A DNA stretch of 64,000 bases from Tubulanus polymorphus (lineage: Eukaryota; Animalia; Nemertea): NCBI RefSeq assembly GCF_964204645.1, contig NC_134031.1, positions 9,858,001-9,922,000 of the forward strand. Reading direction: 5' to 3'. How positions within the stretch are numbered: position 1 is the first letter of the stretch; every line of letters starts with the position of its first letter. This document shows positions 26,018-64,000 of this stretch, one piece after another. Under the pieces are notes generated by a model. It worked only from the letters and a program-made list of their open reading frames with translations. It did no database searches and was not told the DNA's origin. The translations under genes were made by a program, and so were the position numbers.

Positions 26018-26186
26018 AATAAATTCTCACACGCTCGAATTTATTTTTCATTTTTTACTCACTCGCCCCTCCGACCTTTAACCTGAACCCCTATTATCCC
26101 TATTACTCTTAAAATATTCATATATATGAATAACATATAAATGAATAACTTCTAAAATCAATTTTGATAAAAAATTTAGTATTAAA

Positions 26187-29178: not shown

Positions 29179-29200
29179 ATCATCATCATCATTGTCATTG

Positions 29201-29241
<41 letters not shown>

Positions 29242-32040: not shown

Positions 32041-32042
32041 GG

Positions 32043-33110
32043 GTCAGGACTAGCCTAAAGTCTAATTCAGTCTATGCACTAATTCACTCGATAGGCCTAT
32101 TTTTAAAACAATACAGTGAAGTATTCACACGCAGAAAGGCTAATTGATTTGAGCCATGCAATCAAATTTTACTCAGGCCTTCTCTGACCTGCTGACATTA
32201 ATAGTCAAACCTAGATCCAAAACGTTCATGTGGTCACTGCTTGTATACCAGAAATCATGGTAGGCCTGTGCATTTTGCTGTACGTAGGTTTGGTATAACG
32301 ATTTCTCCAATCTTGACTGATAAGTGTACTGTACGCATTATACAATTGTACCAATATGAATAGGGCTTATTATTTCCTGCTTTTTTAAGGCTTACGTTCA
32401 TTCAAATATCCAACATCGGTGAAAGTTTGATTACTGTAAACATGTACTGTAGGTTTTCATGTTGTATGAATATTTTGCAGTTCAAATGGGTATGATGCTG
32501 ATTCCAATGTCAAACACATGAAGTTAAAATGCTCAAGGACAGTTATCACCAAGATATCTATATTCGACCGATGTTGCACCATAGAAGATCTGATTCTTTC
32601 AACTCAAGCAAAGTGATTCAACACGATCGACGTAACACTGGAATAGGTTTGCAGTGACTAACAGTTCATTTCATTTAGTCCTATGTACTTTTTGGCCAAT
32701 TTGGATTTGATTGTAATTGAAACTCTGGAACTGTTAACGAGAGACAAGTAAGACAAGTGGAAAAAAATGAACATTAATTTTCTAAGATCAAGAGTGACTC
32801 TCTACCGTTTATTAAGAAACCCACAAAACTAGTAGAATAGGTTTAATATTTACACACATGTTGCAGGTATAAATTGTTTATCAGTATATAATTTGTAATC
32901 GATAAAAGCCGAAATCAACATCGGCCCGAAAGCCAGACCAAATCAATTCATAATTTATTGATTGAATCTACACTACAATATATGTATTTATTCAAATATT
33001 TCAATAAAAACATTAACTTCTTAAATCTATTCTAAATCATAAAACGTTCTTAATTGTGAATTAACTCAATCTATCGACTCAGCAGGTGCTTAAGATGAGT
33101 TCTTAATAAA
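32043..33110 (+). repeat. Unclassified ~1.07-kb repeat; inverted copy at 40135-42322 interrupted by a solo LTR
   Basis: Colinear inverted similarity throughout, e.g. CAGGACTAGCCTAAAGTCTAATTCAGTCTATGCACT. Confidence 0.85.
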
Positions 33111-33119
33111 TATAACAAT

Positions 33120-36100: not shown

Positions 36101-36860
36101 CTTTCAAATGCTCAAGCGTTAACAATTGCTGATTCTATAATAGTTATAATTGCAGATACCATTTATTTAACAAAAAAAATTTAACGTCAATTGGAGGAAT
36201 TTATTTTTGTTTTTCTAAATAATCAATTCTTAAATTAGATGAAGTAACTGCTAATGTTAATTTTAAAATATCATTTATATCAAATCTATCAAAATAAACA
36301 TTTCGTATTTTAAATACTTTTTTTAAATATCATTGTATATCCAACAGTTCCAACTGATTATAATGTTCCATTATATAATCCATTTATGATCCACTTCTGA
36401 TACGCCATTTATCTAACAAAAATTACCATCTTCAAAATATTTTTTTAATTTTTATTATTATTATTTCAACATTCATAATATTATTAGTTGAATTTTCATA
36501 TATTTTAGTTATTATTTTTTTAATATCATCAATAATAAAATCTTCATCTAATTGGTAAAATTCTAAAGATTCTCTAATTAAATCATAAATTTTTTCTACA
36601 TTATAAGTTTCTTTATTTATTGTTGTTTCATAATTAAATGTTGTTTCATTATAAAATGTAGTATTTCTAATATGCGTTATTACATCATTAATATCAAATT
36701 TCATTTCTTTTTCACGTTTAAAATCAAATCCAAATTATATGCTCGGTCCAACATTTATATTCATATTTATATAACAAAAAAGTTACTCTTTACATCTTAT
36801 AAAAGATTAATAATTCATAAATTACAGGAAAATTATTTAGATCATTAATATATCCATAAT
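33120..36860 (-). pseudogene. Polinton small-ORF cluster interrupted by Sola-like copy 2
   Basis: AIVNA*AF|TCGGYLFKHID...HNLALEKYNKAAEE is rejoined in frame by removing 33447-36105 plus one AAAT; paralogs at 16260-16620 and 61000-61210. Confidence 0.7.
33447..36105. mobile_element. Non-autonomous long-TIR DNA transposon (Sola-like), copy 2
   Basis: Same TIRs and interior as 10381-12960; TSD AAAT at 33443-33446 and 36106-36109; different flanks. Contains a CAGGGGCGGAT...ATCCGCCCCTG hAT-type MITE at ~34106-34393. Confidence 0.85.
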
Positions 36861-37946
36861 TATTTCTTATTATGTACTTTCGCTTTAGCGAAGTCCATCT
36901 TGTTATACATATGAAACTTTCTTCCTTTGGTACAAAATAATTCCCAAACGAGGCTTAGTTTCTCTTCGGAACGTTTAAAACATACAATGCAGTAATAGAA
37001 GCTCTGACCCTATTGAATTTCATCGGAATCCGTTACTTATTTAACAATTTACTTATTTATTTGTTGTTGGAACTACATTTCGTCTCGGAAGAACGAATGC
37101 CCTTTTACGTATATTCATGCTTCACACACGTGCTCGTCACAGACTCGCTGCTATGTGATGTATCGATCTGTGTATGTATATGACAAGCGCCTCGTGCGTG
37201 GCCTAGTTTAAGTTTTCCTGGAAATTGCAAATGTTTCAACTGCCAAGGCTTCGTCGCGGCTAGCCGTGAAAAGCAGTGAATTTTATAGAAGTGCAGTAAA
37301 ACTGGGAAGTTGGAAATTGTTCAATTTACGTAAATAAATTGTCTTTCAAGCTTCGTACACAGCGTATAGAAATCGTCACACCATGAGTATATTTGAGTGG
37401 GGAAAGCCCGCTACCGTGTATATTCATGAATCGTGAATGCAGTTGTGTGTGATGGAGATCGTATCAATAGACAAATGTTAATGAAAACTTCTGGATTCAA
37501 TCAAGGGGGACATCTTAGGCTTTTTTGATAACTTAATAGTAATTTATAATAGCATAGCTGTCATATACGGCTCCACGTCCTCGGATGGCATGTGTTTTAG
37601 GTGACAATTCAATCCAATTCATTATTGATCCTTATAATTCCCAAATTAAATTTTCCAAAGTTACGCATTTTAAAATGAGAAAATACAACATACAAAACAC
37701 ATGCATAATTCAGAATAACATAAACAAGTTTATTTTAAATGACATTTAGAAATATTGAGTGACAGCCAAATCGGGACCGGGCCAGCTGTAGGCCACACGA
37801 TATGCTCCAAAAGTCAGACATTAGACGAGCTCCCCTCAGCCATGGAGGCAATGAAGTTGCAAACCAGCTTAGAGGCAGAAGTGAATGAAGTCGGACGCAA
37901 GTTATCAATTATTGACAATCTTCAATTTTCAAGAATTTCAAATTTC

Positions 37947-38048
<102 letters not shown>

Positions 38049-38139
38049 TAATGTATTAATTTATATTCATCATTTGCTTCAAAATACCTATCTCCCATGG
38101 CACCACTAATTCCACCTCTCATTGATTTTTCAAACAATA

Positions 38140-39860
38140 ATACCGTATCTGGTTCTTTTATTAAATCTTATTCTACATTTGTATATTTTAAACCACATTG
38201 CCAGGTTAAACCAGGACTTGAATAACAATTACAAGAATCAACATCAAAATGATTTAAATTAATTTCTCTTAATTTTTGAAATATATCAGCCAATATCAAA
38301 ACATCTGATTTTGAATATAAATCTACTAATTCACCATGGTTTTCATCTTAAAATGATTCCAAATATTTATTGTTCTTGTAAAAACTTCATCTTTTATGTG
38401 CTAATTTTTTAATTGATCATAAAATTGTTCTTATAATAATTCTGCTTCTTTAAAATCAGCATGTGTTTTGTAAAATGAATTGGACCTTTATATCTCGATA
38501 ATTTAAAATCTTGTTCATTTGGATGATAATATCGCGTCATTATAAAATCATTATCAACTGAACTTTTTGCTGAGCTATCCAATGAACTTGCTAAAAATCT
38601 ATACGAATCTAAAAATCTAAAGCAACCAATTGAAATAAAATGTTATTTTCAGATGTTTTAGCTAATAGTTTTAAATCATATTATCTCACATTTTCATCAT
38701 TTGTAACATTATATTCTTCTATTTCTTGATTAATTTTCCTGATAATTGTTTTAAACTAAATGAGTATCATATCCTGATAAAATATATTGGTACGAAATTT
38801 ACTTCTTTTGCTTGTTGATTACAATCTTCATGAGCAGCTCGATATTTTTCATTTAAATGATCATGATCTTTAACTTTTTCTCTCAAATAAATCAAAACAA
38901 TAACAACAATGAGTTGCATTATTAAAATCACTTCATCTTCTTTTATCATAACTTTTTTAAATTTTTGTTAAATAATTGTGTAAAATCACTTTCTAATTAT
39001 TCTATTACAAAAATCATTTACTACATTTTCACCTCTAAAAGATATATATTAACTTTTATATGGAATTCAGGATGATTTGATTTTTCATAAATTCCCTATG
39101 CAGCAGCTCTTTGGTGGTATTTTTTGATTGTATTTATAATTAACGGGTCTTGAATTGTATCTTCATTTAATTATTTCCTTTATCCATTGATTTTAATAAT
39201 TGCTTTTTATTGTATATTTCATTCTATCTTGATCGGTTAATTATTTATTCAACGATTCAAAATCCCCATAAATTACAAATGGAACTATATCTTTAAATTT
39301 ATAATTTGTAAATATTAATTTATAATCTTTTTCTGTTTGCATGATTAATTTTTTATATTATTACATAACTCTTTATGTTTTAGTAACGCATCTTCAGTTC
39401 TAAATTTAGATAAAAATTTTCTACATAAATATGTTTTGTTATGACTATTAAAATCACTTTCTGTTCTAACGAGTGAATCTATTTGTTTTAACCACATATA
39501 ATGTTCATTTTGATCTTTGTTATAGTATAATAATTCTATCGAATTCTTATCATCATAATGTTGTGTTGAATATAAAGCTTCTAATGTATAATCTTTAATA
39601 TTTTCACCTCGTGTCTTTGGTAATTGTATTAATTCGAATACATTTATTCTTACATTATCAACTTTTTCTATTTTAGGAATCATTTTTATAGTTACTGGAT
39701 ATTGATCAATTTTATGTGTTTCATATTTCCGATAATCTGTTATTCTACAAAGATTTTCCTGAGTTGAGTGTAAACAAATAATAATTGACAATAGAAAACA
39801 TTTATTATCTTCATTTTGAACATGTATAACTGATTTTGTTGGAAATGGTAATTGAATATG
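38140..39860 (-). pseudogene. pPolB copy C (N-terminal and exonuclease regions)
   Basis: QLPFPTKSVIHVQNEDNKCFL, HYMWLK, YGDFES, KVKDHDHL...YRAAHEDCN, FRFLDSYRFL, YSKSDVLILADIF, SSPGLTWQCGLK. Confidence 0.88.
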
Positions 39861-40596
39861 AGAATATAGCTGCAAAGCAGCGATGACGGGTTTTCTGCAA
39901 AGTCATTCACTAGGATGATGGGAATTCTAGTAAATTGAAATACTGATACATAGAATAAAATGCATTAACAGATTAAAACCTAATATGCAACCACTGTGTA
40001 AACGTCAAATGTGATACAGCTTTGAAACATACGCGGACATACAATCAACAAATATGAATTTATTCGACCAGGCATTTATTTTGGCATTCAAACATCATCC
40101 TGTATTATCACCACGCTTAAAATGGATCTGTCCTATTAAGAACTCATCTTAAGCACCTGCTGAGTCAATAGATTGAGTAAATTTACAGATAAGAACGTAT
40201 TATGATTTGGAATAGATTTAAGAAGTTAATCTTTTTATTGAAATATTTGAATAAATACATATATTGTAGTGTAGATCCAATCAATAAATTATGAATTGCT
40301 TTGGTCTGAGTCTCGACCGAGGTTGATTTCGGCTTTTATGTTTCACAAATTCTATACCGATAAACAATTTATACCTGCAAGATGTGTGTAAATGTCAAAC
40401 CTATTCCACCAGTTGCGTGTGTTTCATTATAAACGAATCAATGATATGCTTTGTAAATATGATGTAATAAAAATAAATTTGAATTTGAATTCGATTTGAA
40501 CAGGAGAATCAAGAATAACTTGTGTTTTTTCCACTTGTCTTACGTTAACAGTTCCAGAGTTTCAATTACAATCAAATCTAAATTGGCTAAAAGTAC

Positions 40597-41646
40597 TGAT
40601 CCGCAGCAAGATTTCGTAGTAGCTAAAAAATGTTTGTAATGTTGATTTTCTGTATCCGTTGGTGGTTATAAATGGGTGTCAGACAACAAACGATGTAGTA
40701 AGCAGGTTGTTGTTTGATGCTTTAATCTATCGGCGCTGTTCATAGATCAGCCTGGTGTAAAAATAATTCTTTCTCGGTTCTTCTGCTGCGATATCTGGCA
40801 AAAATTTTGAATCTTTTGTAAAACTTAAGAATAGTCGTAACCGTATTTGGTTGGGTCGGAACAATGAATTGTATTAATAATGTGGCTCGTGAAGGGATCT
40901 CGCTGTACCGTACCGTACTGTGATGAAAAAGAAGTTTTGAAAATATATCTAATTTGAGTAATCTGATTGTTATTTAAGAACAAAATGTTAATAATCGGTA
41001 AGTTTTAGGCAAATTAATTTGTATTAAATGTTAATACTAGCTCTCTAAAGTTTCTCTTGTTGTATACGTCTGTTGGTAATTCGCAAAGAATAGTTGTTCT
41101 TTCAACGATGATAAACATTCCTTCCGCGTCATGACAGGTTGGAAGGAAAAAGTTAGTTTAGCAAATCAGTTTTGAAAATAATTTTAAGATCAGCGAATCA
41201 TTAAGGCTAAATTCTACATGACCAAAACAGTCATGACAGTTAGGTTGCTGCTCCTTGCCAAAAGTCGGGTGGGAGAGTCGGCATTCTATGAATGCTGATC
41301 TTTCTATAAAAGGGGCTCGCAGTCTTGGGAGAGCAGACACTCGATAGATATTCGATAGAAACTCGATAGATACTTGATAGAAGCTTGTTTGGGACTTGAT
41401 TCAGGACGGGTTACCAGCAGGAGAGTACAATATGAACTTAGAGTTAGGAACTGGACTGTGTTTTAACTGGAAAGCTTACATTAATTATCAAGGTAAATAA
41501 AATTCGTTTTACTATTATTATATTCATTCAAATTTCCGGCATTCTAGTTTTTTCTTGGGTTTGTGCACGGACACATTCTCTCGCCAGGGACCGATCATCG
41601 CTTTTATTAAATAACGGCTAAGGAGAGGATTGTGACCGGTGTATCA
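40597..41646 (+). mobile_element. Gypsy-type solo LTR (1050 bp, TGAT...ATCA, 4-bp TSD GTAC)
   Basis: GTAC at 40593-40596 and 41647-41650; empty site AAAAGTACATAGG in the paralog at ~32680-32692; TATAAAAGGGG at ~41305 and AATAAA at ~41496. Confidence 0.88.
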
Positions 41647-42575
41647 GTACATAGGACTAAATGAAATGAACTGTTAGTCACTGCATACCTATTCCAGTGT
41701 TATGTCGATCGTGTTTAATCACTTTGATTGAGTGGAAAGAATCAGATCTTCTATGGTGCAACATCGGCCAAAGAGTGATATCTTGGTGTTGACTGTCCAT
41801 GGCCATCTAACTTCATGCGTTTGACATTGGAATCAGCATCATACCCACGTGAACTGCAAAATATTCACACAACTTGAAAACCTATAGTACATGTATACAG
41901 TAATCAAACTTTCACCGATTTTTGGATATTTGAATGAACGTTAGGCTTATTTCAGTATTCTAAAGCAGGAAATAATAAGCCCAATCAATAGGCCCTATTC
42001 CTATTGGTACAATTGTATAATGCGTACAGCTGTACCATACACTTATCAGTCACGATAAATCGGAGAAATCGGTATACCAAACCTATGTACAGCTAAATGT
42101 ACAGGCCTACAATGATCTCTGGTATACAAGCCGTGACCACATGAGCGTTTTTTTTTTATCTAGATTTGACTATTAATGTCATCAGGTCAGAGAAGGCCTG
42201 GTTAAATTTAATCACATGGCTAAAATCAATTAGTCTTTCTGCCTGTGAATACTTCAGTGTATTGTTTTAATAATATCGAGTGAATAGTGCATAGACTGAA
42301 TTAGACTTTGGGCTAGTCCTGATCAAATCCTATCCATTCATATCCTATCAAATCCTCACCCAAAGCCTATTCTTTCACGCATGCGCGTATGTAGATTATA
42401 GGAAGCAACGTACGGCGTTTGTAGGGAACTCACGTTAAAAAAAAATATGGAAAATATGTAAATAACAAAAATCAACATAATTACAAGAGGGTTTTTGACG
42501 AAAGTCAGAAAACACTAAAATAATAATAATCACGCGAATCTCAATAGGGTTTTCTGTGAAGAAACAGAAAACCCT

Positions 42576-43500
42576 AATGATGCTTTAATATCCTTTCTGT
42601 TGAAAATTTTGAATCATTTGTAAACACTTCATTACTTTATGATTTTGTATTCCTTATTGTATTATACAGATTTGAATCAACAAATATTATCCATTCAATG
42701 TTAAACCAGAACCCTCAAAATATCTTTCTTCAATATGTCGTTTAAACACATTTGATATCTTTTTCTAATTTCTCTTTTATTTGTGGTTTTGAAATTATCT
42801 CTTCAGAATATGTGTGAATAATATGCTCCATTTTTTCTTCTGACTTAATAAAACTTACTTTTCCTGAAATACTTACTTTTGAATATCCAACATCTGTCAC
42901 AAAATCCATTATTTTTTCCATTATTTCAATAAATTTACTATAATCTTCTATTGATGAGCCTTTATAAATCTAAATATAATAGCTGCAGGTCCAATTTTAC
43001 TATGGAATGTTCCTGAAATTTCAATTGTATCTTTTATTTCTAGTGAATCAATGTAATTTCTAACATTTTCCGTATAAGATTTATTTGAAATTTTTGTTTT
43101 CTTTATAGATTTTTTTTACTTGAGATTTATCATCAAAATATTATGTTCCTAAAATATTTTACTTAGATTTTCTTGATGTTTTTGTGATTTAAGATGTCTA
43201 ACGTAATTCCTTTTACTTATAAATTCAATACAATCATTATATTCAATTTCCTCTTTTTTATGTTTTCTAATTGTTCTTTTCTTTTATTTGAATTTTCTGG
43301 TGTCTCAAAAACATTTTTTTATGATTTGCCGTTTTTCATGTCAAGATTTTTGCAATTTGTCAATGTATTTTTTACAATATGGACAATAATATTTTTATTA
43401 ACATCATTCTTTTCTCTTTGGAACTCACTGTCTCCCCTTTTAAAGAAAAAAATTAAAAGTGGTGACGAGTCGACCCTCGACCTCTGATCTGAAAACGTCA
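42576..43500 (-). pseudogene. pPolB N-terminal (zinc-finger) fragment
   Basis: Paralog of 7840-8850 (GDSEFQ.EK.DVNK, NVRNYIDSLEIKDTIEI, KRHIEERYFEGSG). Confidence 0.85.
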
Positions 43501-44358
43501 TATTCTAATTATTCGTATTCCCGCACACCCGCACAGTACATACATAGAATCTGCATAGAATCTGCATAATCTGCATATACATGATAGACTGTTATTCCTA
43601 TCAGAATTCAACATCTCGTTAAGAAGCTGTTGGTAGTCGAATCTGATTGAAGGTCAATTCTATGTTCGAAAAAAACGGAAAATAAATATAGCTGCAAACC
43701 AGCGATTATAGGTTTTCCACGAAGCTGCGCCGTATAATTCAGAATGAAGGGAATTGTAGAAATTAGAATTATGTACATATATAGCACTGACAGATTCGAA
43801 ACTTATACGCCACTACTGTAAACGTGCTGTGTAATTTGAAACCGAACTCATCCGTGACGTACAATCAATAAATACAAATTGATTCCTGCGAGGGCATCCC
43901 CCGAGTAATCATGTACAACTATTATTATATCTCTGTTATGTTTCATACATTTGGAAAATATATACATTCAAACTATTTCCAACAAAAATCGGGACAATCA
44001 ATATTTATCCCTTAAGCGATTGTCTGTCTTTTGCCGCTCCGACTGACGCAGGGTTTTCTATAGGTAAGACATTAAAAGAAACGACATTGAATAACTGGTT
44101 TTGCAACCGCCCGGGTTTCTTTCATTTATTTAGTAAAAATCATCTGACTCCCCAGCGAGTTTGTATTTCTTATTTTTGCTTGTTGATGTGACCTAGTTTT
44201 TTCGTTGATTTTAAAGACACCCCAGTCGGCATAACGAGAGGGTATCTTTTTCAGCCTTATATTAACAGGTACGCCATGGTATATGACTATTCCTACACAC
44301 TGCTAAATGCATGATTTATCATGGTTCAAAGACAGATTACCCTCGTTCATAATTACAG

Positions 44359-44496
44359 GAACAGAAGAGCATTGGCCGTATTTGCTAGCAATAACAGGCG
44401 TGCCTTGTTTGTTTTCACTGATCTCGCTTCCATTTTTCCCGGGCAGTCCGCGTTATTTGTTGGTCACTAAAAAGGATCGCCCTGCGGCAGAAAAAG
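44359..44496 (+). CDS. SLC2A: SLC2A exon (TM6 and loop)
   Basis: ttacag|GTEEHWPYLLAITGVPCLFSLISLPFFPGSPRYLLVTKKDRPAAEK|gt; phase 1 matches both neighbours. Confidence 0.93.
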
Positions 44497-45029
44497 GTAT
44501 AAACTTTGCATAAATATCAACGTAGTCTCAAATATTTGTGACTACTTCAAAATGCATCACAATGGAACCGATTCTCATATACTGCAGTGCCTCTCGTCAA
44601 AAACTGATAAATGAACAAATAAACATATTGAATTGACATCATTCAATGATTACTTCGAGTTCGAAACATGTTTAATGTGCCGTAAATTCCCCATTAACGA
44701 CCCAGTCTGAGGAATTATGTTGGGCTTTAAAAATCAGCTTTCGAAATAGTTTTCTATTGAGTTTAAAAATCGTTTTATTTTTCTATCCATTTCGATTGAG
44801 TATATTCGATACATCTATGAACTTTTTTTTAATATCATTTTTTGAGATGAGAGGAACTTCCGTATTCTGTAATGAACAATATAATCATTTTCATAATTTT
44901 GTGTTGATATTAACGTTTCAGTAAGTACACGATCGTTTGGTTTCATTTTTTTCTGATATACACTCGAATAACTCTCTTCGACGGTTCTATGTCATGGTAG
45001 ATTTTAGATTTAATTTCTTTTTTTTTATT

Positions 45030-45230
45030 TTTAATAATAATAATAATAATTTATTGAGCCTAAAATCCATATAAAATATGCTCATTGGCTTTACAATATA
45101 AAGACACAATTTAAACATAAAGATAGAAAAAACAATTTACATCATTAGTTAAAAGCTTAAGTGAACAAATGGGTTTTAAGTTGCGATTTAAAAACATTAA
45201 GTTGTGTATACAATTTTAATAAAATTCACA
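45030..45230 (-). mobile_element. L2/CR1-group LINE 3' end with (TTA)n tail
   Basis: QLNVFKSQLKTHLF followed by TTGTAAAGCC...AATAAATTATTATT. Confidence 0.65.
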
Positions 45231-45429
45231 TTCGTAACGAGATGACATTACAGTAAGTTAGATGTTATTTCATCAGGATATTCTAAATCAACTACATGAA
45301 AATAACTGTCGGGAGTATCATATTTAATACTCATAACTGCACTATTCGCAATCGGTTTTGTCACCATCTTCAACTTCTGTTAATATGAAATTTTTATATG
45401 GCTGAGGTTGCTTCATTGCCCAACCCTAT

Positions 45430-45915
45430 AAATATTTAGCATCTATAAACAACAACTTACATTCATCATTTGCTTTGAAATATCTATCTGAATTAACCCA
45501 TTACACCATTTATTCCACCTCGAAACGATGATTCAAATAATAATACAATATCTGGTTCATTTAGTAGATTTAACTCTACTTCGATATATTTTAAACCACA
45601 TCGCCATGTTAAGCCGGGACTAGAATAACAATAACATGGATATACTCAATTCCAAAATGTTTTATGTTAACATTTCAAATTTTTTTCCGAATATTCCTGG
45701 TGATATTATTGCAATTGATTTTAGATATAAATCTACTAATTCACTATGATTTTTTCCCCAAAAATATTCCAAATATTTAATTTTCTTTTAAAAACTTCAT
45801 CTTTTACATCTTCATCTTTTAATTGATCATACATCAATTGTCCTTTTAATAATTCTGTTATTCTATTTAAATCACCATTCGTTTTATAAAACGAATAAGG
45901 AATTGCGCCTTTATA
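45430..45915 (-). pseudogene. pPolB fragment
   Basis: KGAIPYSFY, ELVDLYLKS, PCYCYSSPGLTWRCGLKY, EPDIVLLFE...RGGI. Confidence 0.8.
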
Positions 45916-46029
45916 CTTTTATCTCTGAGAGTGATACACTTGGTCATGAAAAGTCTCGGGAAGGCTGTTGGGTCTGTCAATCTTTTTGAACTATCACCGA
46001 CTCTATTAGGCCATCTCACTCTAAAGTTT

Positions 46030-49000
46030 GAAATGTAATGTAATGTTTATTTCATCAATAAAGAACATTTTACAATTATGTACATTCAAAATACATATTA
46101 TATAATACTGTATTGATAGGTTGCCACCCCGAGTCAAAAAAAAGACTGTAACCCTAAGAGGTGGGATGACACCTGGAAAAAAAAAAGTGATAATAATTGA
46201 AATGGAATGATGGTTTAATTCTTTATACATGAGTATTACAAAGTTCAGTTCATAGGTTCCGAGGATTTGAGTTAAGATTTTAATAATTTTCTAGGCAGGA
46301 TGTTTTATATCTACGCGTAAGGGTATGTATTGACGGTGATGTGCGAGTAAGATTTGGGATATTTTGCGTAATTAAGAGTATTATTTGCGTAATTAAGAAT
46401 TATTATTTATGAATGTTTTATGAGTAGCCCTACGTGGGTAATTTCTATTTCTGGTATTATACTGATGGTTAAAGGCGTTTGTTTGGAAGATATTTTTTAG
46501 TTGTTTAGGAATTGATTGTATTGTTTTGTTAATACATGTACGCAAATTTAAGCATTTCAAGTTTTATGAAATCGTCTAGTTTTAGGATATCGTATTTTAT
46601 AAAAATTGGCGCTGTATGTGCGTTTTATTCTTTAATATTAATTGGTCTTACTGCGTTTTTGTAATCTTGATAATACTGCTAATTGCTTTTTAGGTGCACT
46701 AAGCCCCCGTATCCCTAGAATGTAACTTAAGTGATTATGTATGTAATTGAAATACAGCAATTTCTTAGCCCAGGATGGTATTAGCTTTTTTACACATCTT
46801 AACATATACATGTTTTTGTTTATCTTATTAATCAATTGTTTGATGTGATCATTCCAGTTTAGGGGCTTGTCAATGGTTAAGCCTAAGAATCTAAAACTAC
46901 TCACAACTTTATTTAACCCTAAGAAGCCTAAACTATGAAGCCAGCATCTTAAAATTATGTCACTCATATTTCTATATTCAGTAAGGTGTCATTTGAAGAG
47001 AAATGTCTTAAAAATTGACTGGGCCAAATTTCCCCCAAAATTAGGTCCTGTAGCAGATCTGATACAACCGTTTTTACTTGACAAAAATCAAATAAAAATT
47101 TTCAGATTCAAATAAAGTTTTTCTTCATTAAGTACTTTAATTGGATACAGGATTTTCACTTGTGATACGCTAAAAAGCAATTTCGTAGTGTGACCGAAAA
47201 CGTTTGACTTTATCTTATGATCATTCAAGCAGACAGAAAGTTACCATTTTTGGATTTAGTTCACAAATTACTAGATAGAGGGAAGCACTTATCTGTATCA
47301 GGAATGATACAACCGGTCTTTGAGGCGCCTTTTTGAATATAATTCATACATATGTGATTTTGCTGAAGAAATAATTCTTTTGGCAAAATGGACGTATCAT
47401 ATATAATACTTGTGGTATCTTAGGGTTAATAATAATACTTAATATTTTGGCCAATAAAACTCAAGTCCAGATCATTATTATATCTTTTTGGATCCTTTTG
47501 GTTTAAAAAATATCGCAGCTGTTTTAGAAATATTTAATGTGAGTTTGTTAGCCCTAAACCAGTCCATTAAATGTTCAAATCGCTCTGTATATAGCTGTTC
47601 ATATCTTTTAAGTTGGGACCAGAGATATAAATAGTAGTGTCATTCGCAAACATGATCGCTTTCATATGTTCTAATTTGTTGGGAAAATCATTACTATATA
47701 ATAAAAATAACAATCCTCCTTGTACAGAGCCTTGAGGTACGCCATATTCAAGTAACGTCTGGATTTGCAATTGTTAAAATTTACATGAATATTTCTATCA
47801 GTTGAGTAGCTTCTGAACCAATAAAGTGCTTTTCCACGTGTTCGGTAGTGTGATAATTTGCTGAGAAGTATAGATATATCTAGCGAATCGAATGCTTTTG
47901 ATAGGTCCATGTAAATTCATATAGTAAGATGTTTTTTATCCATTGCCTTGTGAATGTTTGTAGTGAAATCCATATGAGCTTTATATGTTGAAAGACCTTC
48001 TCTAAATCCGTATTGATTGTCATAAATTAAATCAAATTTAGTAAGATATTTACACAGACGCTTATACATTATTTTTTCTAGGATCTTTGATCGTACTGGC
48101 AAAAGTGAAATTGGTCTATAGATAGATAATAGGTTCTTCTCTTTACATATTGGTAAAACCTCAGCTAATTTTGAACTGGAGGGGCATTCCCCTTCTACAA
48201 TCGATTTTTTTACTATAATACTAAAGTGGCTTGGATATTTCATGCTTGATATTTTTTAGAATCTTATTTGATATATCGTCGTATCCAGAGCTGTTTTTAT
48301 GGTTATATATCATTTATCAAGATGGACACTTCGTTTTCGTCAGTTGGGTGTATAAAAAGGATCGTGGTTTATTTTTCCTAAATATTTATCAAATTTCAGT
48401 TTTATTTGAATTGGTATTTTATTGGCAAATTGCTTCCAAACTGTACTGAATTATTTACAAAAGGAATTACTTATTCGTTCTGGATCAGTTACTCGTTTAC
48501 CATTTAGATTAAAATTATCAATAATTCCTGATTTATCATTTAATCTATTCATAGTTGTTTTAAGTAGTTCCTACAGTTTCTTAGAATTATGTTCAAAACT
48601 AATCATTTTGTTTGTTAGGTAATTCCGTTTTGCTATTCTTTTTATGTAATTGAATCTATTCGCGTGGGTTTAAAAATAGTTGGGTACATGTTATTGTTTA
48701 GGTTGATATCTAGAAATTTAGAAGTGTTGTTATGTTGGTTCACTTTACTTAAGTCAACATTTTGATCCATCCCAACAATGATGGATTTCTTTTCATTCAA
48801 TATTTTTTCAAGTAACGTGTTATATTCGAGTAAGAAATCATTTTCGTTAGTGTTGGGAATGCAATAAATTTCACCGACAATAGCATTTTCACTTAGTATT
48901 TCTATAAAGCATGATCCAAATTTTCCTTTATGGAAATTTAAATTGCAACTCCTCTTGTAGCATTGTACTTCGATGTTTTTCGTTTAATGTATAGCCACTC

Positions 49001-49230
49001 GAATAAGTCTACGTTTCTTCCTGTTACAATGGTTTCACAAAGTAGAATTATGTCAGGTGTGGAATGTTGACTTTTACATCGCTCTATTGATAGTTTGTCA
49101 AATTTACTTTGTAGACCTTGAATATTCAATCGTACAACATTTAATTTACTACTGAAAGTTTTAATTTTGCTCAGCTCATCAATTTCAGTATATGGGCTAT
49201 CGTAATCACTCAGTCTTAGATCTGGATCAA
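46030..49230 (-). mobile_element. CR1/L2-group non-LTR retrotransposon ORF2 (APE + RT), degraded
   Basis: LNIQGLQSKF...DIILLCET (endonuclease), YRPISLLP, NQYGFR, MDLSKAFDSL, GVPQGS, FANDTT, FRFLGLTIDKPLNW; (CATTA)n tail at ~46030. Confidence 0.92.
46917..47425. mobile_element. piggyBac-like MITE inserted in the LINE
   Basis: TTAA|CCCTAAGA...TCTTAGGG|TTAA. Confidence 0.8.
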
Positions 49231-49801
49231 TTATAGAGTTTAAGTTTTTTTTCGTACCGTACTGTCAATGTTACCTGACTGACACAAACCTCATAAGTTA
49301 ATATAGACACTGCCATAGTAGCTTTGATATATAGTGTTATGAGATGAATATGGGATTTAAATAGTTTCATAAGATATATAAGAATTCTATACAAGAGCAG
49401 GTTGGTTACCATGTGTAGTAATAGCAATGGTAACTATCTATATCCCCCAATTTATTATCTATTGTTTTCTGAAAGGGGTTTTCTATCTTCCATCTATTAT
49501 AGGGGGAAAATTACTCAAAAGAGTCGGCAGGGCCCGACCTCTGATTCCATAACGCCATATTGCAATTACTAACCTCAAGGGCGTTATATGTATTCTAAAG
49601 CTCAACATCATTCTATGAACGGGGTGCAGTGGTTTAAATTTTTATAATCTACGACATAGCAGACATGTTTCAAACGAAGTTTTAAACACATTTCAGAACA
49701 TAAGGACAGAATTTAGTTCCATTCTGAGGAAGATTAAAAACAGTTTAGACTTCGTTCATCTTCATCCAATAATTTCATAAAACATTCATCTTGCTTTAAA
49801 G

Positions 49802-49992
49802 CACTGAAGTTTTTTCGTGGGCCTCAACACGATGTCACAACAGATATTCAAGAGATGGAGCTAGAAGCGCATCAGATGGAACAAGAACCTCCATGGACAT
49901 TCTCGCACTTGTTCGCGACAAAAGAGTTAAGATTACAACTAGTGCTCGTTAGTTGTCTTGCTTTAGCTCAACAGTTGTCAGGTATTAACGTG
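49802..49992 (+). CDS. SLC2A: SLC2A exon (intracellular helices, TM7)
   Basis: aag|ALKFFRG...DIQEM...LRLQLVLVSCLALAQQLSGINV|gtgcgt. Confidence 0.93.
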
Positions 49993-50132
49993 GTGCGTAC
50001 CTTTTTTCCGTGAATGTGGAGTTAATATTAATTACAATGGAAGTGTCAAGCGTCGAACTTATTCTTTAGTTGTTTCTACTGTCGAAAACCACAATTTTGT
50101 CACTAAAAAACGATTTGTATTGATATTTTTAG

Positions 50133-50243
50133 GTATTCTATTACTCAACTGGTGTTTTTCGAGACGCTCAGATACCGGATGAATACACGCAGTATGCGAC
50201 GTTATCGACAGGTTTCATCAATGTTCTCATGACAGGAATTTCG
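50133..50243 (+). CDS. SLC2A: SLC2A exon (TM7-TM8)
   Basis: tttag|VFYYSTGVFRDAQIPDEYTQYATLSTGFINVLMTGIS|gt. Confidence 0.93.
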
Positions 50244-50365
50244 GTGTGTTGAAACTGATCTTATTGAAACTGATCTTATCACACTTACATCGAATCTGGC
50301 TGGGGGTGTCGATTCAGATTGGCGCATGGCATCTCAACTTGTTGAAATATTGAATGCAATTTCAG

Positions 50366-50543
50366 GTGCCGCTAATGGAAAAGAGTGGTAGACGTCCCCT
50401 CCTACTATCCGGGATGGTATTGATGATTATGTCAGCTAGTGTTATAGTACTTTGTCTCGGTTTACAGCACATAGCCACCTGGTTATCCTATCTAACTATC
50501 CTCTGTATGATACTCTTTGTAATCGGTTTTGCAATTGGCCTGG
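50366..50543 (+). CDS. SLC2A: SLC2A exon (TM9-TM10)
   Basis: ttcag|VPLMEKSGRRPLLL...LFVIGFAIGLG|gtgagt. Confidence 0.95.
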
Positions 50544-50948
50544 GTGAGTAGTTCATCTGCCATTTATAGATAATTCATGTTTATTTAGTAATTAACAGAC
50601 GTTTGAAAGAGAAAAATAAAAGTGAACCTCTTTTGAAATTACCATAATTCAATCGTTATCCACAAGCTATCATTTCGTGTTTCATCTCGAGAGAAATTTG
50701 AGTTTGGGAGGTATTTGACCGAAAGGCTTTACTTACATTTCTTTGGTCGTCCTAAGGCGACCCTAATTACTCAAAATTGCGCATTTCTTTGATGAATCTG
50801 CGTAATTGTTTTACATACTTAGGAGAGTTACATCCCACTGCGAGGAAATGAGATTTAATTAATTGATTTAATCAAACACTGCGTTATTTTAAATATGAAT
50901 TTTCGAATTCATTCGACGATGATAATCTGTATAAACGTTCCATTTCAG

Positions 50949-51076
50949 GATCCATACCCCAGTTTATAGGCGCGGAGTTATTCAAACAGGGACCACGACC
51001 CCCTGCAATGTCTTTCGCCGGTATGTTGAACTGGTTAGCAAATTTTTTGGTAGCGATGCTATTTCCCATAATGCAG
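50949..51076 (+). CDS. SLC2A: SLC2A exon (TM10-TM11)
   Basis: ttcag|[42 protein letters not shown]|gttagt. Confidence 0.95.
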
Positions 51077-51339
51077 GTTAGTCGTATGCATATCTCTGAT
51101 CATTCCTCTAAATATAATCAGCAATACAAGATGTAATGGACATTTGTGAATTATATCGGTTTCTTGCGCCAGAGCTCTTTTGAAAAATTTAATTTCACAT
51201 TTCTTTTGCTTTTCTGACTTCGGACTTACGACTTCAACTACTGATGTGAAAATGCATTGACATCAACAACTAATCCAACAAGAGGACCGTAAGGCCCATA
51301 TGAATAGGGATATGATATAAAGGATAATAAGGATATGAA

Positions 51340-51720
51340 GTGTTAAAACTATCTGTAATTCGTAGATTTTCAGGATTAGAGATTAATGAAAACCTTACCT
51401 GGGAGCCACATGTTAATAACTAATCAACAAATCAAATGAAAACCTCTATCTACTAACGAGTGTAAAGAATATTCTACATAGTTGTCGTAAAAACTTATTT
51501 ACGATAGGTATAAACATAGTGCTCTTGTGTATACCCGTACTGTTTGGGGACCTATCCTAACAGTCAAGCAATCTGACTCTATTTCAAAATTAAAACGAAA
51601 TGTGTTAGACTAATCAATAATTTAGCCTATAATGCACCAACAGGGCCAATATTTAATAAATATAGTATATTGTAAATTCCAATGCTAATTAGCCATATGC
51701 TTGCAAATTGAATTATATCT
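51340..51720 (+). mobile_element. LINE RT C-terminal fragment
   Basis: GLEINENLTWEPHV...NLYLL..VK...VWG; similar to 46640-46900. Confidence 0.7.
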
Positions 51721-52516
51721 TATCGAGCTCGAAACATCAAATTCAATTCAATCTTATTCAAATTAAAACAAATCTAATTTTATTTTATTCAGCAAAAACA
51801 TCAAATCTCATTTAATTTTTGTTTGTATAGATTTTTCGAAAATCATTGAAAGGAAAAAATAATTTATATAAAGCATTTGTTACTTAAAAGAATCACAATT
51901 GAACTGTGTTAATTAAAACAGGAGCTCGAGAGCACGACCTTCCGTCCTCTAATTAAGGGATGATCAAGCTAACCATAACAGAGCCGGCAGTTATAAAAGT
52001 GAAGTGTTAACAAATTGTTATTGATTAGGCAAAACATAGAACCTCATTTAATTTAAGCCGTAGGACACTTTGTTTTCAAAGCGATTAATATGTACTGTGT
52101 GCCCAAGTCAATTTTCCACATCCAACAACATTATATCTCACTAATTTGTCTATATTGGTATGAATCCCGGCTTTTAAGATCATTGATCTCTTGTTCCATA
52201 TTTATAATATCAAATGTCACTCAAATGTACGACAGTCATTGGGGAAACGTAGAGTAAGCGATACGCCAGAGCTTTGAAATTCAATTATTCCTGATGTATC
52301 ATTTGCCATAATTAAAAAAACCAAACTATTGAATAAAACAATGCTTATGAAACTCACTGAAAAGTTCAGTTGCCCTATATTCAAACCGAGTTAGACAAAT
52401 AACTTAAACTCCTTGTCAATTCAAAATGAAACGTGTGGAGCTAGGCCCAATTACACGTGTTTTCTCCTTCACCAAATATTTCTTCACCTTATTCATCGCT
52501 TTATGTGTATTTTCAG

Positions 52517-52735
52517 TCGGCAATGATGCAGTATGTGTTTTTAGTTTTCATTGCAATCACTGTATTGTTCGTGATTTGTGTCTGGCAACTCCTTCCCGAG
52601 ACAAAAAACAAGAGTTACGATGAAATATACAAAGAATTCCATACACCATATTCCAAGGAAAAGGACAACGCCGAACGTACAATGGTAGATATGATTGATA
52701 GTCATTTTTATCTAATGCTTGCTTTATATGATTGA
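52517..52735 (+). CDS. SLC2A: SLC2A exon (TM12, PETK, C-tail); 3' end uncertain (possible donor at ~52685)
   Basis: ttcag|SAMMQYVFLVF...LLPETKNKSYDEI. Confidence 0.88.
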   Translation, partial: SAMMQYVFLVFIAITVLFVICVWQLLPETKNKSYDEIYKEFHTPYSKEKDNAERTMVDMIDSHFYLMLALYD

Positions 52736-54265: not shown

Positions 54266-55900
54266 ATGGAAGCGAACAAGAAGTACTACTGTCCAACATG
54301 TAAAATTGATATAAATAAATCTCACAAAGCAAGATATAATAATACTAAATCTCACTCAGAAAATAAATTAAAATTAGAATATAAAGATGGTATAGTAGAA
54401 ACTAAATTAGAAGAATTGAAAAATGAAAATGAAACATACAAATGTGTTACGTGTAATCAATCATTCAGTAACAAAGGCTATTAAATCTAAAAGCCATATT
54501 AGAAATATTAATAATTATATTTTAGGTTGAGATTATTTAGATGAAAATAATGATCAAAAACAAAGCACAATTAAAAGAATAAAAAAGAAATTAAACAATA
54601 AAAGACCATACATGGAAGATGTAAGAAATTATATTAATTCATTTGATGATAAAAAAGAAATAGAGATAATGGAAGAATTTAAAGGTGATATTGGTCGAGC
54701 TGCTATTGAGTTTAGATTTTATAAAGGTAAAACGTTAGAAGAAAATAAAAAACTAAGAAAATATGAAAAGTATTATAAAAAATGATTACAGACGTAGAAT
54801 ATCCTAAAATAAGTATATCTGCTAAAGGTAAATTTATGAAATCTGAAGATAAACCAATATATGATATAAATTCTCATTCACAACATATTTCAAAACAACA
54901 TATAGATGATAGATTAAATAAATGTTACAATGAAGTAAAAAATAAAGTAGAAAAGAGATATTTTGAAGGGTCTGGTTTAATATTGGATGAAATATTTATG
55001 ACGTTACATGTGTAAAATACAAAATATAATAAATTAACTAAATGAAAACAATTGATGAAAATAATTTATCACATTATAAAGATGTTAACATAAATGTATC
55101 TTAAATGGAAGTTATATTAAACTACCATTTAAAACTAATGCTGTTATAAATGTACAAAATTTTGATGATAAATGTTTTTATGGGTAATTATAAGTTGTTT
55201 ACATCCAACAGAAGATATTACACATAGTTTTAGAGTATCAAATTATATACTATTTGAAAATAATTATAAGATAGAAATGTACCCTCTTAAAATCAGAACT
55301 ATTCCAAAAATAGAAGGAGATAATGATTTAAAAATAAATGTATATGATTTAATAAAATTACCAAATACAAAAGGTAATAAAATTGAACATTTTACATTAG
55401 AACCTTTATACCTATCAAAAGATTATGATTCAAATGATGCTCATATATTATATTATGAGAATCATTATATGTGGATAAAACAAATCGATTTATTTTTTGT
55501 TAATGTATCAGTTTCATTACAATGTATTACAATCTCATTTTGGAGAAAAGCATATAGAAATTATGTATTTTGATACTGACAGTTACATTTTAAAGATTAA
55601 AACTAATAATCTAAGAAATGATTTAACTAAATTAAAACATCATTTTGATTTTAGTAATTATCCTAAAGATAATCCGTTATATAATTCTGAAAAAAAGTTC
55701 CAGGCAAATTTAAAGATGAATTAGGTTCTGACGAAATGATAGAGTTTATAGGAATTAGATCTAAAATGTATAGTTACAGAACTAAAGAGCATGAGGCAAA
55801 AAATCAAAAGTTGTAACAAAATGTATAGTAGAAAAGAATATTCATTTTAAAGATTAAATCAATTGCATATTTGATGAAGAAACTAACAAACATAAGATGA
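54266..55900 (+). pseudogene. pPolB copy D: ZnF N-terminus joined to an intein-free motif C region
   Basis: MEANKKYYCPTC, KRYFEGSG, GSYIKLPF...NVQNFDDKCFLW, then a deletion junction at ~55495 and HIEIMYFDTDSYILKIKT...GIRSKMYSY. Confidence 0.88.
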
Positions 55901-55914
55901 AATGTCTGAAATAA

Positions 55915-58040: not shown

Positions 58041-60690
58041 AGATGATTTTAATCTAACATAATTATTACAAGAACCATTTTATGATCAATTAAAAGAGGA
58101 GTGTGTAAAAGATGAAGTTTTTACTAGAACATTTAATATTTGGAATCATTTTAAGATAAAAAATCATGGTGAATTAGTAAATTTATATTTAAAATCAGGT
58201 GTACTGATATTGGCTGATATATTTGAAAAATTTAGAGAAGTTAAATTAAATCATTTTAATGTTGATCCTTGTTATTGCTACTCTAGTCCGGGTTTAACTT
58301 GGCAATGTGGTTTAAAATATACTTGTGTAGAATTAGATTTATTAAAAGAACCAGACATAGTTTCATTATTTGAAAAATCAATCAGAGGTGGAATTAGTGG
58401 TATTATGGGAGGGGTATTTTAAAGCAAATGATGAATATAAATTATTACATATTGACGCCAATAATTTATATGCTTGGGCAATGATGCAATATCAACCATA
58501 ACAGAAGTTGAAAATGATGATAAAACTGAGTGGGAAAGCGCAATTATGAGTTAAAAAGATGATGTACCTATTGGTTATTTCTTTGTAGTTGATTTAGAAT
58601 ATCCTGATAATATAATGTTTAAAACAAGAAACTTACCTTATTGCCCAGAACATTTAGCCGTATATGATAGTTATCTAGAAGTGAATACCAGAAAAAAAAT
58701 AAAATCGAAAGACAATGGTTTTACAGAAAAATTAATATTAACACAAAATAATAGATATAATTATATTGTTCATTATAGAATGTTAAAATTTTATCTAAAA
58801 CAAGGAATGAAATTAGAGAAAGTACATAGATATATTGAATTCAATCAATCGAAGTGGTTAGAAAAATATATAGATTTCAATACTCAACAGAGATCAATAT
58901 CTAAAGCAGATTTTTTTAAATTAATGAATAATAGTTTTTATGGAAAAACATGTGAAAATATTAGAAATAGAAATGATATTGAATTAGTAAATAATTCTGA
59001 ACGATTGAGACATTTACAATCAAGTCCTAGACACTTAGGAAATAAAAGATTTGAAGATTATTCAACAGCAGTAAAATTAAAAAGAACGCCAATGAAATTT
59101 AATAAACCTATAATCATTGGTTTAACTGTTTTCGAAATATCAAAATTATTAATGTATGATTTTAATTATAATGTTTTTCAACCACTTTTTGGGGGAAAAC
59201 ATATATAAATCTTATATTATGATTCTGTTACAGCTGATACTCCAATATTGTTGAAATATAATAATCAAATGTTACTTAGAAGAATTTCAGAAATAATTCA
59301 TAAGCAAAATGAACTTTATATTTCGTATGGTGAAAAATTATTAATACAAATAAATGGATTAATGGATGTTTTGACAAAAAATGGATGGAAAAAATTTAAA
59401 AATATAATAAGAAATAAAACAAATATAAGAATATATAGAGTTAGAACTAAATTAGTGTTTGTTGATGTTACTGAAGATTAATTTAATTAAACAAAATGGT
59501 GATGAAATAAAACCAACTGATATAAAAATATAGATGAATTATTACATAAAAGATTTTATCCAATAATGAATCATATGTCATTTGATGAATTAATTGATAA
59601 TATTTATAACATAGAACCAGAAACATTAGAAGAAAAAGAATATTTTATCAAAGGATTTTTTATGGGAGATGGTTCAGCAGAGCAGATGTGTATAATTACG
59701 TTGGAGGCAATAAATATTGTTGATATTCATGCAATCAAGATTTGAAATTATTAAAAAGAAATAAAAAATATTGTGAAGAAATTTATCCAAATAAAACATT
59801 TATTAGAATCGTGGATCATATGAAATCATCAGCAGTTTATAGAATACTTGTGAAAAACCCTAAAGATTTTGCTACAACATAATGATGAATTCTATATTCA
59901 TGCAATAGTTAAAAGTAATACTTCAACCAAAGAAAAGATAGTGCCAGATTATGTATCAAATGCAAAAATCTAAGAAAATTGTTCTTCATTCGATTCTACG
60001 CAGCAGATGGTGCTAAAAAATTTACGGGTTCTCCAGTAATAATATTTGCACAAAAGGAAAAGTTGGTATATCAGGATTGTAATTCATTAGGCTTCAATAT
60101 GAATATTGAATTAATTAAATCTAAACCAAATTGTTTTAATTCAAGACACGGAGAAAAAGAAATATCCAAGAAGTTAGAGATTTATTTGAAATATATAACC
60201 CATCAGATTATGTTTATGATTTATCAACTGAAGATGGAACATTCAAATCTGGTTTCCATTAATCCTCAGAAATACGGATGCGTACACACTAAAAATCAAG
60301 GCAAATAACATAACAAAAGACTTACAAACATTAAAACATCATTTCGACTTAAGCAATTATCCAAAAGATCATGCATTATTTAGCAATGATAATAAAAAAA
60401 AATTCCTGGAAAGTTTAAAGATGAATAAGGGGGTGATGAAATGATTGAATTTGATGGGATAAGAAGTAAAATGTATAGATATAGAACTAAAGATCATGAA
60501 GCTAAAAAGTTCAAAGGAATAACAAAGCATGTGGTTGATAAACATATAAAATGTCAAGATTATATAAAGTGTTTATATAATTCAATAGTAATGAAACATA
60601 AAATGAAGTTGAAAAAACTAGTTTAAATCCATTCGATGATAAAAGATATATTTTGGATGATGGAATAAAAACATTACCTTAAGGTTATTA
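58041..60690 (+). pseudogene. pPolB copy E (polymerase domain), intein-containing
   Basis: LADIFEKFR, SSPGLTW, SIRGGIS, HIDANNLYAWAM, KLMNNSFYGKTCEN, intein in YYD|...|TDA, FDDKRYILDDGIKTLP. Confidence 0.92.
59224..60273 (+). mobile_element. Intein with LAGLIDADG homing endonuclease in pPolB motif C (copy E)
   Basis: YYD|SVTADTPILL, VDVTED, YFIKGFFMGDGS, FYAADG, YVYDLSTEDGTF...LILRN|TDA; 1050 bp with frameshifts and stops. Confidence 0.92.
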
Positions 60691-60989
60691 AAACATAATA
60701 TCAACATCATCATACTCGAAATCACTATTGGCTTCTTCATTTTCATCTTATTGTTTTTCTATAATTTCTTTAGGTTCTTCCATTTCATTTTTCTCTTTTA
60801 AATAAAATTCTATATTATTCCACATTTCATCTCGCTCCTTTTGTTTCTTTTTATTTGTTATTCATCAAATGGAATCATAATATCGATGTTTAAAAAATGA
60901 GCAATTTTATTCAAAAAGAATTCATAATTAATTGAATCTGTTATTTTATCATCCACATAATATCTTAATATTTTTATGATATTGCAATT

Positions 60990-63284: not shown

Positions 63285-63540
63285 ATGAGTGGGAGTAATA
63301 TAAATTCTTCTGCGAATTATATAATTTCTAATGCTATTAAAGCAGAAAGATCTCATCATATAATTACTCATAATCCTTCTAATATTAATCCCGATGAAAC
63401 TTTATATGTTAGAATTCCTCGATTAACACAAAATACTTTTTATGTTCCAAATAGTATTTACTTATCAGCTGATATAAAAGTTACTGGTCATGATAATAAT
63501 TATGTCGTAGATAATGTTGGAAGATATTTAATTAAACAAG
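63285..63540 (+). pseudogene. Polinton/adintovirus major capsid protein N-terminus, truncated
   Basis: AIKAERSHHIITHNPSNINPDETLYVRIPRL...VPNSIYLSADIKVTG...VVDNVGRYLIK resembles the NPS.I.....L.V.FP.L...VP...L...N.GR.. start of Polinton double-jelly-roll capsid proteins; similarity stops at ~63540. Confidence 0.7.
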
Positions 63541-64000
63541 AGGACTTCAAAGTCCTGGGGTTCGAAGAAGCAAAGTCTGATGTAATAAATTATTAATTAC
63601 ATACACATTACATGGTTTTCCGCATTTTGCACGTGGTGAATGATATGCTTTGTAATTATATTAAGGTGTAATAAAGTTATGTTGAATTTGAGTTGTTTAC
63701 ATCTGACGTCTTCGATAAAATGAGGCGCGCAGCTGAGCTTGCCTGTTAAATCAACATATTTGGTTTACACTAAAAATACGCTTACTTGAAAAACTATGTA
63801 GTGTATCAATCTAGAATTTTCGGCACAATATCCGATGCTAAATACCTTACTTTAAAGGTTAATTTGATGTAAATCGGATCGCAAATATTTCTAATATTTT
63901 GTTCTTAACTTATGAAGTGGAAGCCGGTGTCGGCATCAACGCTGTACGTACGGGTACTGGTGCTTTAACAGGATCAGCATTGATGGTATATTTATGCGCT

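Follow-up and report, generated by a model that had tools for sequence, protein, structure and literature searches.

A decayed LAGLIDADG intein, related to those of giant-virus polymerases, in motif C of a Polinton protein-primed DNA polymerase

The DNA analyzed in this study, a single stretch of 64,000 nucleotides (here called the window), carries a GLUT-type transporter gene, several decayed copies of a Polinton DNA polymerase, and an insert in one of these copies that is the subject of this work (W1; Table 1). The intron at 19765-44358 of the transporter gene is 24.6 kb long and full of Polinton debris, and the polymerase copy with W1 lies approximately 6.5 kb beyond the last detected GLUT exon; W1 sits in a viral fossil polymerase gene and not in a host gene. 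A second, decayed intein copy (W2) is housed in another polymerase fragment, and further fragments at approximately 13.4 to 16.1, 38.1 to 39.9, and 44.7 to 45.9 kb stop short of motif C. The window also holds other repeats. A 31-bp tandem satellite of approximately 2.1 kb (55900-58040) separates the empty-site polymerase copy from the W1 copy. A 3-kb unit at 26017-29109 has 785-bp inverted arms (96%) and a zinc-finger open reading frame (ORF) at 26145-27023, and part of it resembles 54236-54539, upstream of the empty-site polymerase. Two copies of an element of approximately 2.6 kb with inverted ends of approximately 440 bp lie at 10377-12970 and 33443-36115, and reverse transcriptase fragments together with a DDE-transposase helix-turn-helix fragment were found at 47570-48255 and 1387-1722, both on the minus strand.

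Table 1. Features of the window; a slash marks the junction of an intein or of an empty insertion site
Feature	Position	Strand	Basis or remarks
Polinton polymerase fragment housing W2	5089..8572	-	tblastn
W2, second decayed intein copy	5834..6887	-	1054 bp; 5 frame switches; YFD/FVTADTP...IAFN/TDC
GLUT1-4-type (SLC2A) transporter gene	19621..52650	+	five detected exons; spliceosomal AG/GT signals
Third polymerase fragment, more distant, with empty site	55479..55721	+	HFGEKHIEIMYFD/TDSYILK; junction 55574/55575
W1 N-extein, broken protein-primed Polinton PolB	58042..59223	+	tblastn; motif A DANNLYAWAMMQ; motif B KLMNNSFYGKT; first half of motif C YYD
W1, decayed class 1 intein with LAGLIDADG endonuclease	59224..60273	+	colinear with the 354-aa P0002 intein; exact ends
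W1 N-terminal splicing (Hint) region	59224..59560 (right end approximate)	+	Ser1; block A SVTADTPILL; block B VTED; matches to P0002 and Mimivirus inteins
W1 first LAGLIDADG motif	59641..59676	+	YFIKGFFMGDGS; GFFMGDGS at 59653-59676
W1 second LAGLIDADG motif	59979..60011	+	LFFIRFYAADG; FYAADG at 59994-60011
W1 C-terminal splicing region	60170..60273 (left end approximate)	+	block F VYD at 60212; terminal Asn before Thr+1
W1 C-extein, broken	60274..60700	+	tblastn; remaining motif C (TDA) and polymerase end
Capsid-like ORF fragment, likely the element's major capsid gene	63285..63593	+	ESM Atlas lead only

When the longest open piece of W2 was used as the query, 6 of 117 candidates matched. P0002 (1693 aa, encoded on a 13-kb contig), the best match that was a whole protein, is a protein-primed PolB interrupted by a 354-aa segment at YGD/S...N/TDS. 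In tblastn searches of the window, the intact P0002 intein aligned end to end with both W1 (E 2e-52) and W2 (E 7e-94), and the Mimivirus intein also matched both (E 1e-22 and 8e-31, respectively); these matches rule out a chance resemblance of motifs. The Hint region of W1 is 60% identical to that of P0002 over the first 86 residues and 37% identical to the Mimivirus intein (E 3e-11). A Hedgehog-type Hint domain was ruled out, since both intein ends and the nuclease are present and empty alleles exist, and a spliceosomal or group I intron was ruled out because coding homology spans the first to the last codon.

The preliminary description of this DNA had reported a 1050-bp insert splitting motif C, and its limits proved to be exact. 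The insert divides the motif as YYD/S...N/TDA: the codons TAT-TAT-GAT (YYD) end at 59223 and Ser1 (TCT) starts at 59224, while the terminal Asn codon (AAT) ends at 60273 and is followed by ACG-GAT-GCG (TDA). The motifs it had named, SVTADTPILL, GFFMGDGS, FYAADG, VYDLSTEDGTF (at 60212-60244), and the terminal Asn before Thr+1, are all present in W1, with Arg-Asn preceding Thr+1. The exception concerns VTED(H): VTED occupies 59467-59478, but a stop codon comes next and the His is unreadable in W1; it can be read in W2, where block B is VTEDH and where Phe replaces Ser1. Decay had also been understated. The motifs of W1 are spread over three frames, with seven frame switches relative to the intact P0002 intein, and the frame of Ser1 contains 20 stops. 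Neither W1 nor W2 can splice or home at present. An HMM search for Hint and LAGLIDADG domains, as had been proposed, found no intein or LAGLIDADG family in Pfam among the five stop-free pieces of W1, which are short and decayed, and only sub-threshold matches in one piece of W2 (LAGLIDADG_3, E 0.021; Hom_end, E 0.029). Intact relatives, in contrast, scored above the cut-offs: P0029 for Intein_splicing and Hom_end, and P0002 for LAGLIDADG_3; Intein_splicing fell below its cut-off in P0002, P0004, P0039, P0042, and P0043. W1 is thus confirmed as a genuine intein that has decayed; its family is known, whereas the kind of protein that hosts it is new.

Comparison of the two inteins and their hosts gave further information on their history. 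The W2 polymerase (5089-7525) and the W1 region (58596-60979) are 87% identical at the DNA level. Their exteins diverge by 7.7% with no preference among codon positions, the pattern expected of decay following integration. Divergence of the inserts is 12 to 13.5%, above the extein value (p 0.003 to 6e-5); third positions are in excess among the differences (p 0.005-0.04), an effect concentrated in the last third and the near flanks, and the synonymous shares (29/80 vs 15/63) are little different. A tract at 59990-60330, compared with 5.8 to 6.1 kb, shows approximately 18% divergence and crosses the C-terminal junction of the intein; it is a possible conversion tract. This modest signal, which depends on the frame assignments, hints at conversion between different intein alleles and is only suggestive of separate acquisition of the intein by W1 and W2. 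The empty-site copy (YFD/TDS) groups with the W1 and W2 exteins and three empty relatives (SH-aLRT 99; all tree supports given here are SH-aLRT values). Four sequencing runs from one organism, possibly the source of the window (at most two samples from one study), yielded 950, 286, 86, and 238 contigs matching the window, which cover 30 of 30 window bins and bridge both W1 junctions, with a depth that does not equate to copy number; the filled form is therefore real and has many variants. None of the joints listed for these contigs crosses exactly over the W1 insert.

The W1 polymerase is assigned to the protein-primed PolB enzymes by its homology to P0002, which is PF03175 positive, and by its placement in the extein tree; its N-extein matches P0002 from query residue 781 onward with 48% identity (tblastn, E 4e-109). 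Downstream, the ORF at 63285-63593 had no Pfam match, but its ESM Atlas features scored 0.97 to Preplasmiviricota clusters, one of which has Sputnik_MCP_1st on 10% of its members, with a sub-threshold recognition value. Pfam analysis of 119 stop-free window pieces found no integrase, packaging ATPase, or protease; the copies are fragmentary, and the W1 copy runs toward the end of the window. A comparison using the ORFs of 22 IMG/VR loci likewise revealed no retrovirus-like integrase, packaging ATPase, or protease in the window, and no terminal repeats were found for the W1 copy. These features resemble those of Beta adintoviruses/Polintons as described in the available text of PMC8502044, which have a divergent PolB with a weak or absent PF03175 score and, as here, a capsid-like ORF downstream. 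They differ in that the main text of that paper, as available, does not mention an intein, and in that integrase, ATPase, and protease genes were not found in the window.

The insert of P0002 matched 548 of 1976 candidates. Among the best 120 of these matches, 115 carry PF00136, including the PolB proteins of Mimivirus (39%, E 8e-55) and Mimiviridae sp. ChoanoV1, and five are protein-primed polymerases (P0002, P0029, P0039, P0042, and P0043). Additional carriers, fragmentary or broken, are P0001, P0003, the 55-member P0004 cluster, P0410, and L001. The presence of an intact intein in several Polinton lineages had been missed in the preliminary description; these relatives uphold what it had said of the identity of the insert, its site, its giant-virus affinity, and its protein-primed host polymerase. 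The five intact carriers fall into two polymerase classes whose exteins are approximately 25% alike. P0039 has a PF03175 score of 111 bits, compared to 0 to 62 for the others; we read it as Alpha class and the remaining carriers as Beta, on the basis of the description in the available text of PMC8502044 and of class motifs.

The anatomy of the intein is conserved. An N-terminal Ser is found in W1 and all intact carriers; block B reads TEDH in W2 and in six of six aligned inteins and is broken after TED in W1. The VYD...N/T end (block F Asp, terminal Asn, and Thr+1) is present in W1, W2, and the intact carriers, and GFFxxDG and GFYxxDG, with both LAGLIDADG acidic residues, are kept in all six aligned inteins. 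W1 indeed lacks a penultimate His, as had been noted, but this does not hold throughout the clade: a His precedes the terminal Asn in P0004, P0029, P0042, and P0043, although not in P0002, P0039, the Mimivirus intein, W1, or W2. The penultimate His of class 1 inteins is common but not universal. A model of the P0002 intein, built from a six-row alignment (pLDDT 78, pTM 0.82), best matched TliVMA, PhoVMA, PI-PfuI, and PI-SceI (best E 5.5e-14), followed by mini-inteins and I-DmoI. The predicted fold, which is that of the intact relative and not of the window copy, comprises a splicing (Hint) domain and a LAGLIDADG endonuclease. In this modeled architecture of a splicing domain with a two-motif LAGLIDADG nuclease, the P0002 intein appears to resemble the archaeal TliVMA, PhoVMA, and PI-PfuI and the yeast PI-SceI inteins; it differs from them in sequence (12 to 19% identity), host protein, and insertion site.

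The intein is rare and patchy among Polintons. Of 117 other nearest polymerases, 2 carry it, 77 have an empty D-T/S-D site, 33 have an empty D-C-D site, and 5 are truncated, so that the site is empty in 110. The 33 polymerases with YxD-C-DS in place of D-T-DS are Beta-type proteins among P0308-P0424; these variants could be homing-resistant targets. Scans of IMG/VR with P0004 and P0002 gave no match; with the extein alignment as the query, 22 loci were retrieved, and the intein was absent from all 20 of those in which the polymerase ORF was long. A profile search of 50%-cluster representatives returned 3133 matches at E<=0.001, and the best 150 included 131 new proteins, none with a protein-primed extein (P0211 is an intein-only fragment). 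In the P0029 cluster (136 members, contigs of up to 1 Mb), the 15 members listed comprise 7 full-length filled, 5 empty, and 3 fragmentary polymerases. The filled members listed have inteins 96 to 99% and exteins 99% identical to those of P0029, and the empty members listed are 94 to 98% identical, with two exactly 346 aa shorter; filled and empty alleles therefore occur together at 94 to 99% identity.

From this patchy distribution, it is likely that homing among Polinton lineages, in which the nuclease would cut empty sites and repair would copy the intein in, lies behind the spread of the element. Repeated precise loss can also produce such a pattern, and a single old gain in Polintons followed by vertical descent, many precise losses, and little homing between lineages would account for the similar identities of inteins (45 to 50%) and exteins (41 to 48%) among Beta-type carriers. 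An extein tree was built from 70 rows, namely, 7 filled rows, the window empty copy, and the 62 best polymerases with an empty D-T/S-D site, with D-C-D and truncated rows excluded. On this tree, the filled rows require six changes, at least five of them forced by starred branches. They are no more clustered than in shuffles (85 of 500 as low), and change counts do not separate gain from loss. We nevertheless consider vertical descent improbable. The extein of P0039 is 24 to 25% identical to those of the other carriers, yet its intein is 42 to 49% identical to theirs (49% with P0002) and is placed within the clade; closely related polymerases include both filled and empty alleles; and both acidic residues of the nuclease have been retained.

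Separate intein and extein trees, which had been suggested at the outset, gave one clade of nine Polinton inteins (SH-aLRT 99 to 100 for the whole intein, 91 for the splicing part, and 98 for the nuclease part) and scattered filled exteins. This clade is most closely related to inteins that occupy the same site in giant-virus PolB proteins, that of Mimivirus among them (42 to 49% identity). Across the two polymerase families, the inteins are 38 to 49% identical, whereas the exteins show only background similarity and no alignment. The Mimivirus PolB intein (P0095) shares with the Polinton inteins the family features of motif C (pol-c) inteins, namely, the site D/TDS, Ser1, Asn, and Thr+1, and two LAGLIDADG motifs. 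Its ends (SVTGDTP...VYDLET...KN/TDS) and size had been given correctly: it has 351 aa, compared to 337 to 354 aa in Polinton carriers. The host differs, since the Polinton polymerase is protein primed and has no significant alignment with that of Mimivirus, and the window copies are broken. When two contig collections were scanned, 160 loci were kept and 149 were parsed; all 149 have the intein at xGD/TDS of a giant-virus-type PolB, and many are GVMAG labeled.

The same intein family was also observed in type II topoisomerases at D/TDG or D/CDG (P0181, P0263, P0288, and P0292) and at PolB motif B (N/S) in 12 proteins; it has therefore moved between sites more than once. One PolB with this intein, P0098, is labeled as coming from a Heimdallarchaeaceae MAG and may be either a mis-binned viral contig or a genuine archaeal carrier.

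The direction of transfer was examined in trees built under LG+G4 with short searches, rooted on six motif B inteins and including 38 of 183 giant-virus-type rows. The best trees place the Polinton clade deep inside the giant-virus family, near Mimivirus and ChoanoV1, and nested trees are 30 to 35 log-likelihood units better than the alternatives. It can be envisioned that the donor was not a giant virus, with the same intein and the same homing: the Polinton clade would then be sister to the giant-virus motif C inteins, stem from an unsampled third party, or even have passed its C-terminal part on to some of the giant viruses. In the deeper search, the AU test did not reject a tree in which the Polinton inteins fall outside every giant-virus motif C intein (p-AU 0.096), and a family that also occupies topoisomerase II and motif B sites is mobile between sites. 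However, that tree is 35 units worse (RELL 0.04), and the family is diverse in giant-virus-type PolB proteins (149 of 160 loci parsed, all at xGD/TDS) and rare in Polintons; a donor other than a giant virus is therefore judged unlikely. A first AU test had given p 0.46 from a quick search, the free tree of which was 31 units from a better tree. The Polinton inteins have a shortened C-terminal end, FN[CSTA]G[FYST]xLIxxN, that recurs in 40 of the 217 motif C inteins of giant-virus type but in 0 of 12 motif B and 0 of 4 topoisomerase inteins; a tree uniting the inteins with this end and the Polinton inteins was not rejected (p 0.49). The crossing of an NCLDV-type intein into a protein-primed PolB, as put forward in the preliminary description, thus stands as regards kinship; these trees make transfer from a giant virus to a Polinton likely without proving it. 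When set against 92 distinct giant-virus-type junctions, the empty Polinton site agreed at a mean of 16.1 of 30 bases, compared to 8.4 +/- 2.0 for 207 control 30-mers; this agreement derives from conservation of the motif and shows only that a common target exists.

We favor the explanation, with a probability of approximately 0.7, that a LAGLIDADG intein in Polinton motif C was gained once from the matching site of a giant virus, spread by homing among Polintons, and entered animals on an integrating element. In a carrier that is still intact, translation would yield a precursor polymerase containing the intein. Judging from the residues in place (Ser1, the His of block B, the Asp of block F, the final Asn, and Thr+1), class 1 splicing of the established kind would follow and would restore the catalytic D-T-D, which the element needs for replication. 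In the manner established for LAGLIDADG nucleases, the endonuclease would convert empty alleles: it would cut the empty motif C of other copies that share the cell, and the intein would be copied into them during repair. A jump between the two polymerase families would be possible since motif C is almost the only DNA that they have in common; the similarity is observed, and cleavage across families is presumed. First contact would have taken place where a giant virus and a Polinton occupied one cell, perhaps that of a protist, and carriage into animals would have come later.

An animal host for the window is likely, given the spliced GLUT-type gene and its 24.6-kb intron. The first GLUT exon matched vertebrate GLUT proteins (E 1e-13) better than transporters of Plasmodium (1e-6) or of plants (3e-4), and the AELFxQGPRP exon matched only vertebrate GLUTs. 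It could be argued that the window comes from a nonanimal eukaryote with long introns and holds a protist-like endogenous viral intein of the type reported for algal giant-virus polymerases, since mammalian GLUTs are heavily represented in the PDB library with which the transporter was compared and since Beta-type PolB proteins also occur in nonanimal data sets, according to the available text of PMC8502044. This seems very improbable, because the three exons tested match vertebrate GLUT1-5 first and the 24.6-kb intron lies within repeat-rich sequence. From the GLUT-type gene and the many decayed copies we infer germline residence; the entry into an animal germline that had been proposed earlier is likely on these grounds, with the qualification that both window copies are dead and the gene that houses them is viral.

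Inteins are stated to be absent from metazoan genomes in the available text of PMC8529194. Full-text literature searches, including the available portions of PMC12220804, PMC3671162, PMC5718144, and PMC13768754, brought up no description of a splicing intein in either a Polinton or a protein-primed polymerase, and a term count gave no occurrence of the word intein in the accessible text of 10.1101/2024.03.25.586562; supplements, Repbase, InBase, and subscription journals could hold one. HNH and VSR endonuclease domains in Polinton pPolB (10.1101/2023.08.22.554363; PMC11071308) are likewise nuclease insertions in Polinton polymerases, and the available text of PMC11071308 suggests that such domains stem from intein invasions. 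As far as the accessible text goes, those cases comprise nuclease domains only, and the word intein does not appear in that of 10.1101/2023.08.22.554363; in contrast, the inserts reported here include a full splicing domain within a catalytic motif, with empty alleles. Likewise, PMC10710043 describes inteins within virus-like DNA polymerase genes that lie on nuclear scaffolds in Klebsormidium, Tetrabaena, and a labyrinthulomycete, and it proposes viruses as the vectors; the hosts there are algae and protists, and the main text, as available, mentions neither Polintons nor animals. Judging from the literature searched, an intein has apparently not been described before in a protein-primed polymerase, and the host kingdom is likely new for this intein family. 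The scope of the finding is set by its being in a viral gene, dead in the window, and parallel to the endogenous giant-virus inteins already known in algae.

In conclusion, these results provide a route by which inteins may enter metazoan genomes and a concrete case for the suggestion, in the available text of PMC11071308, of intein-invaded Polinton polymerases. They imply that Polintons and giant viruses have shared cells closely enough for recombination and that Polinton lineages of different classes have met in one nucleus, which bears on whether these elements have a real infectious cycle. A bolder and more tentative reading, to which we give somewhat less than even odds, is that the giant-virus homing intein that crossed into protein-primed polymerases is still cycling among Polintons of both classes inside animal genomes. 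If so, families of the P0029 type would depend on protein splicing and would undergo homing in animal cells.
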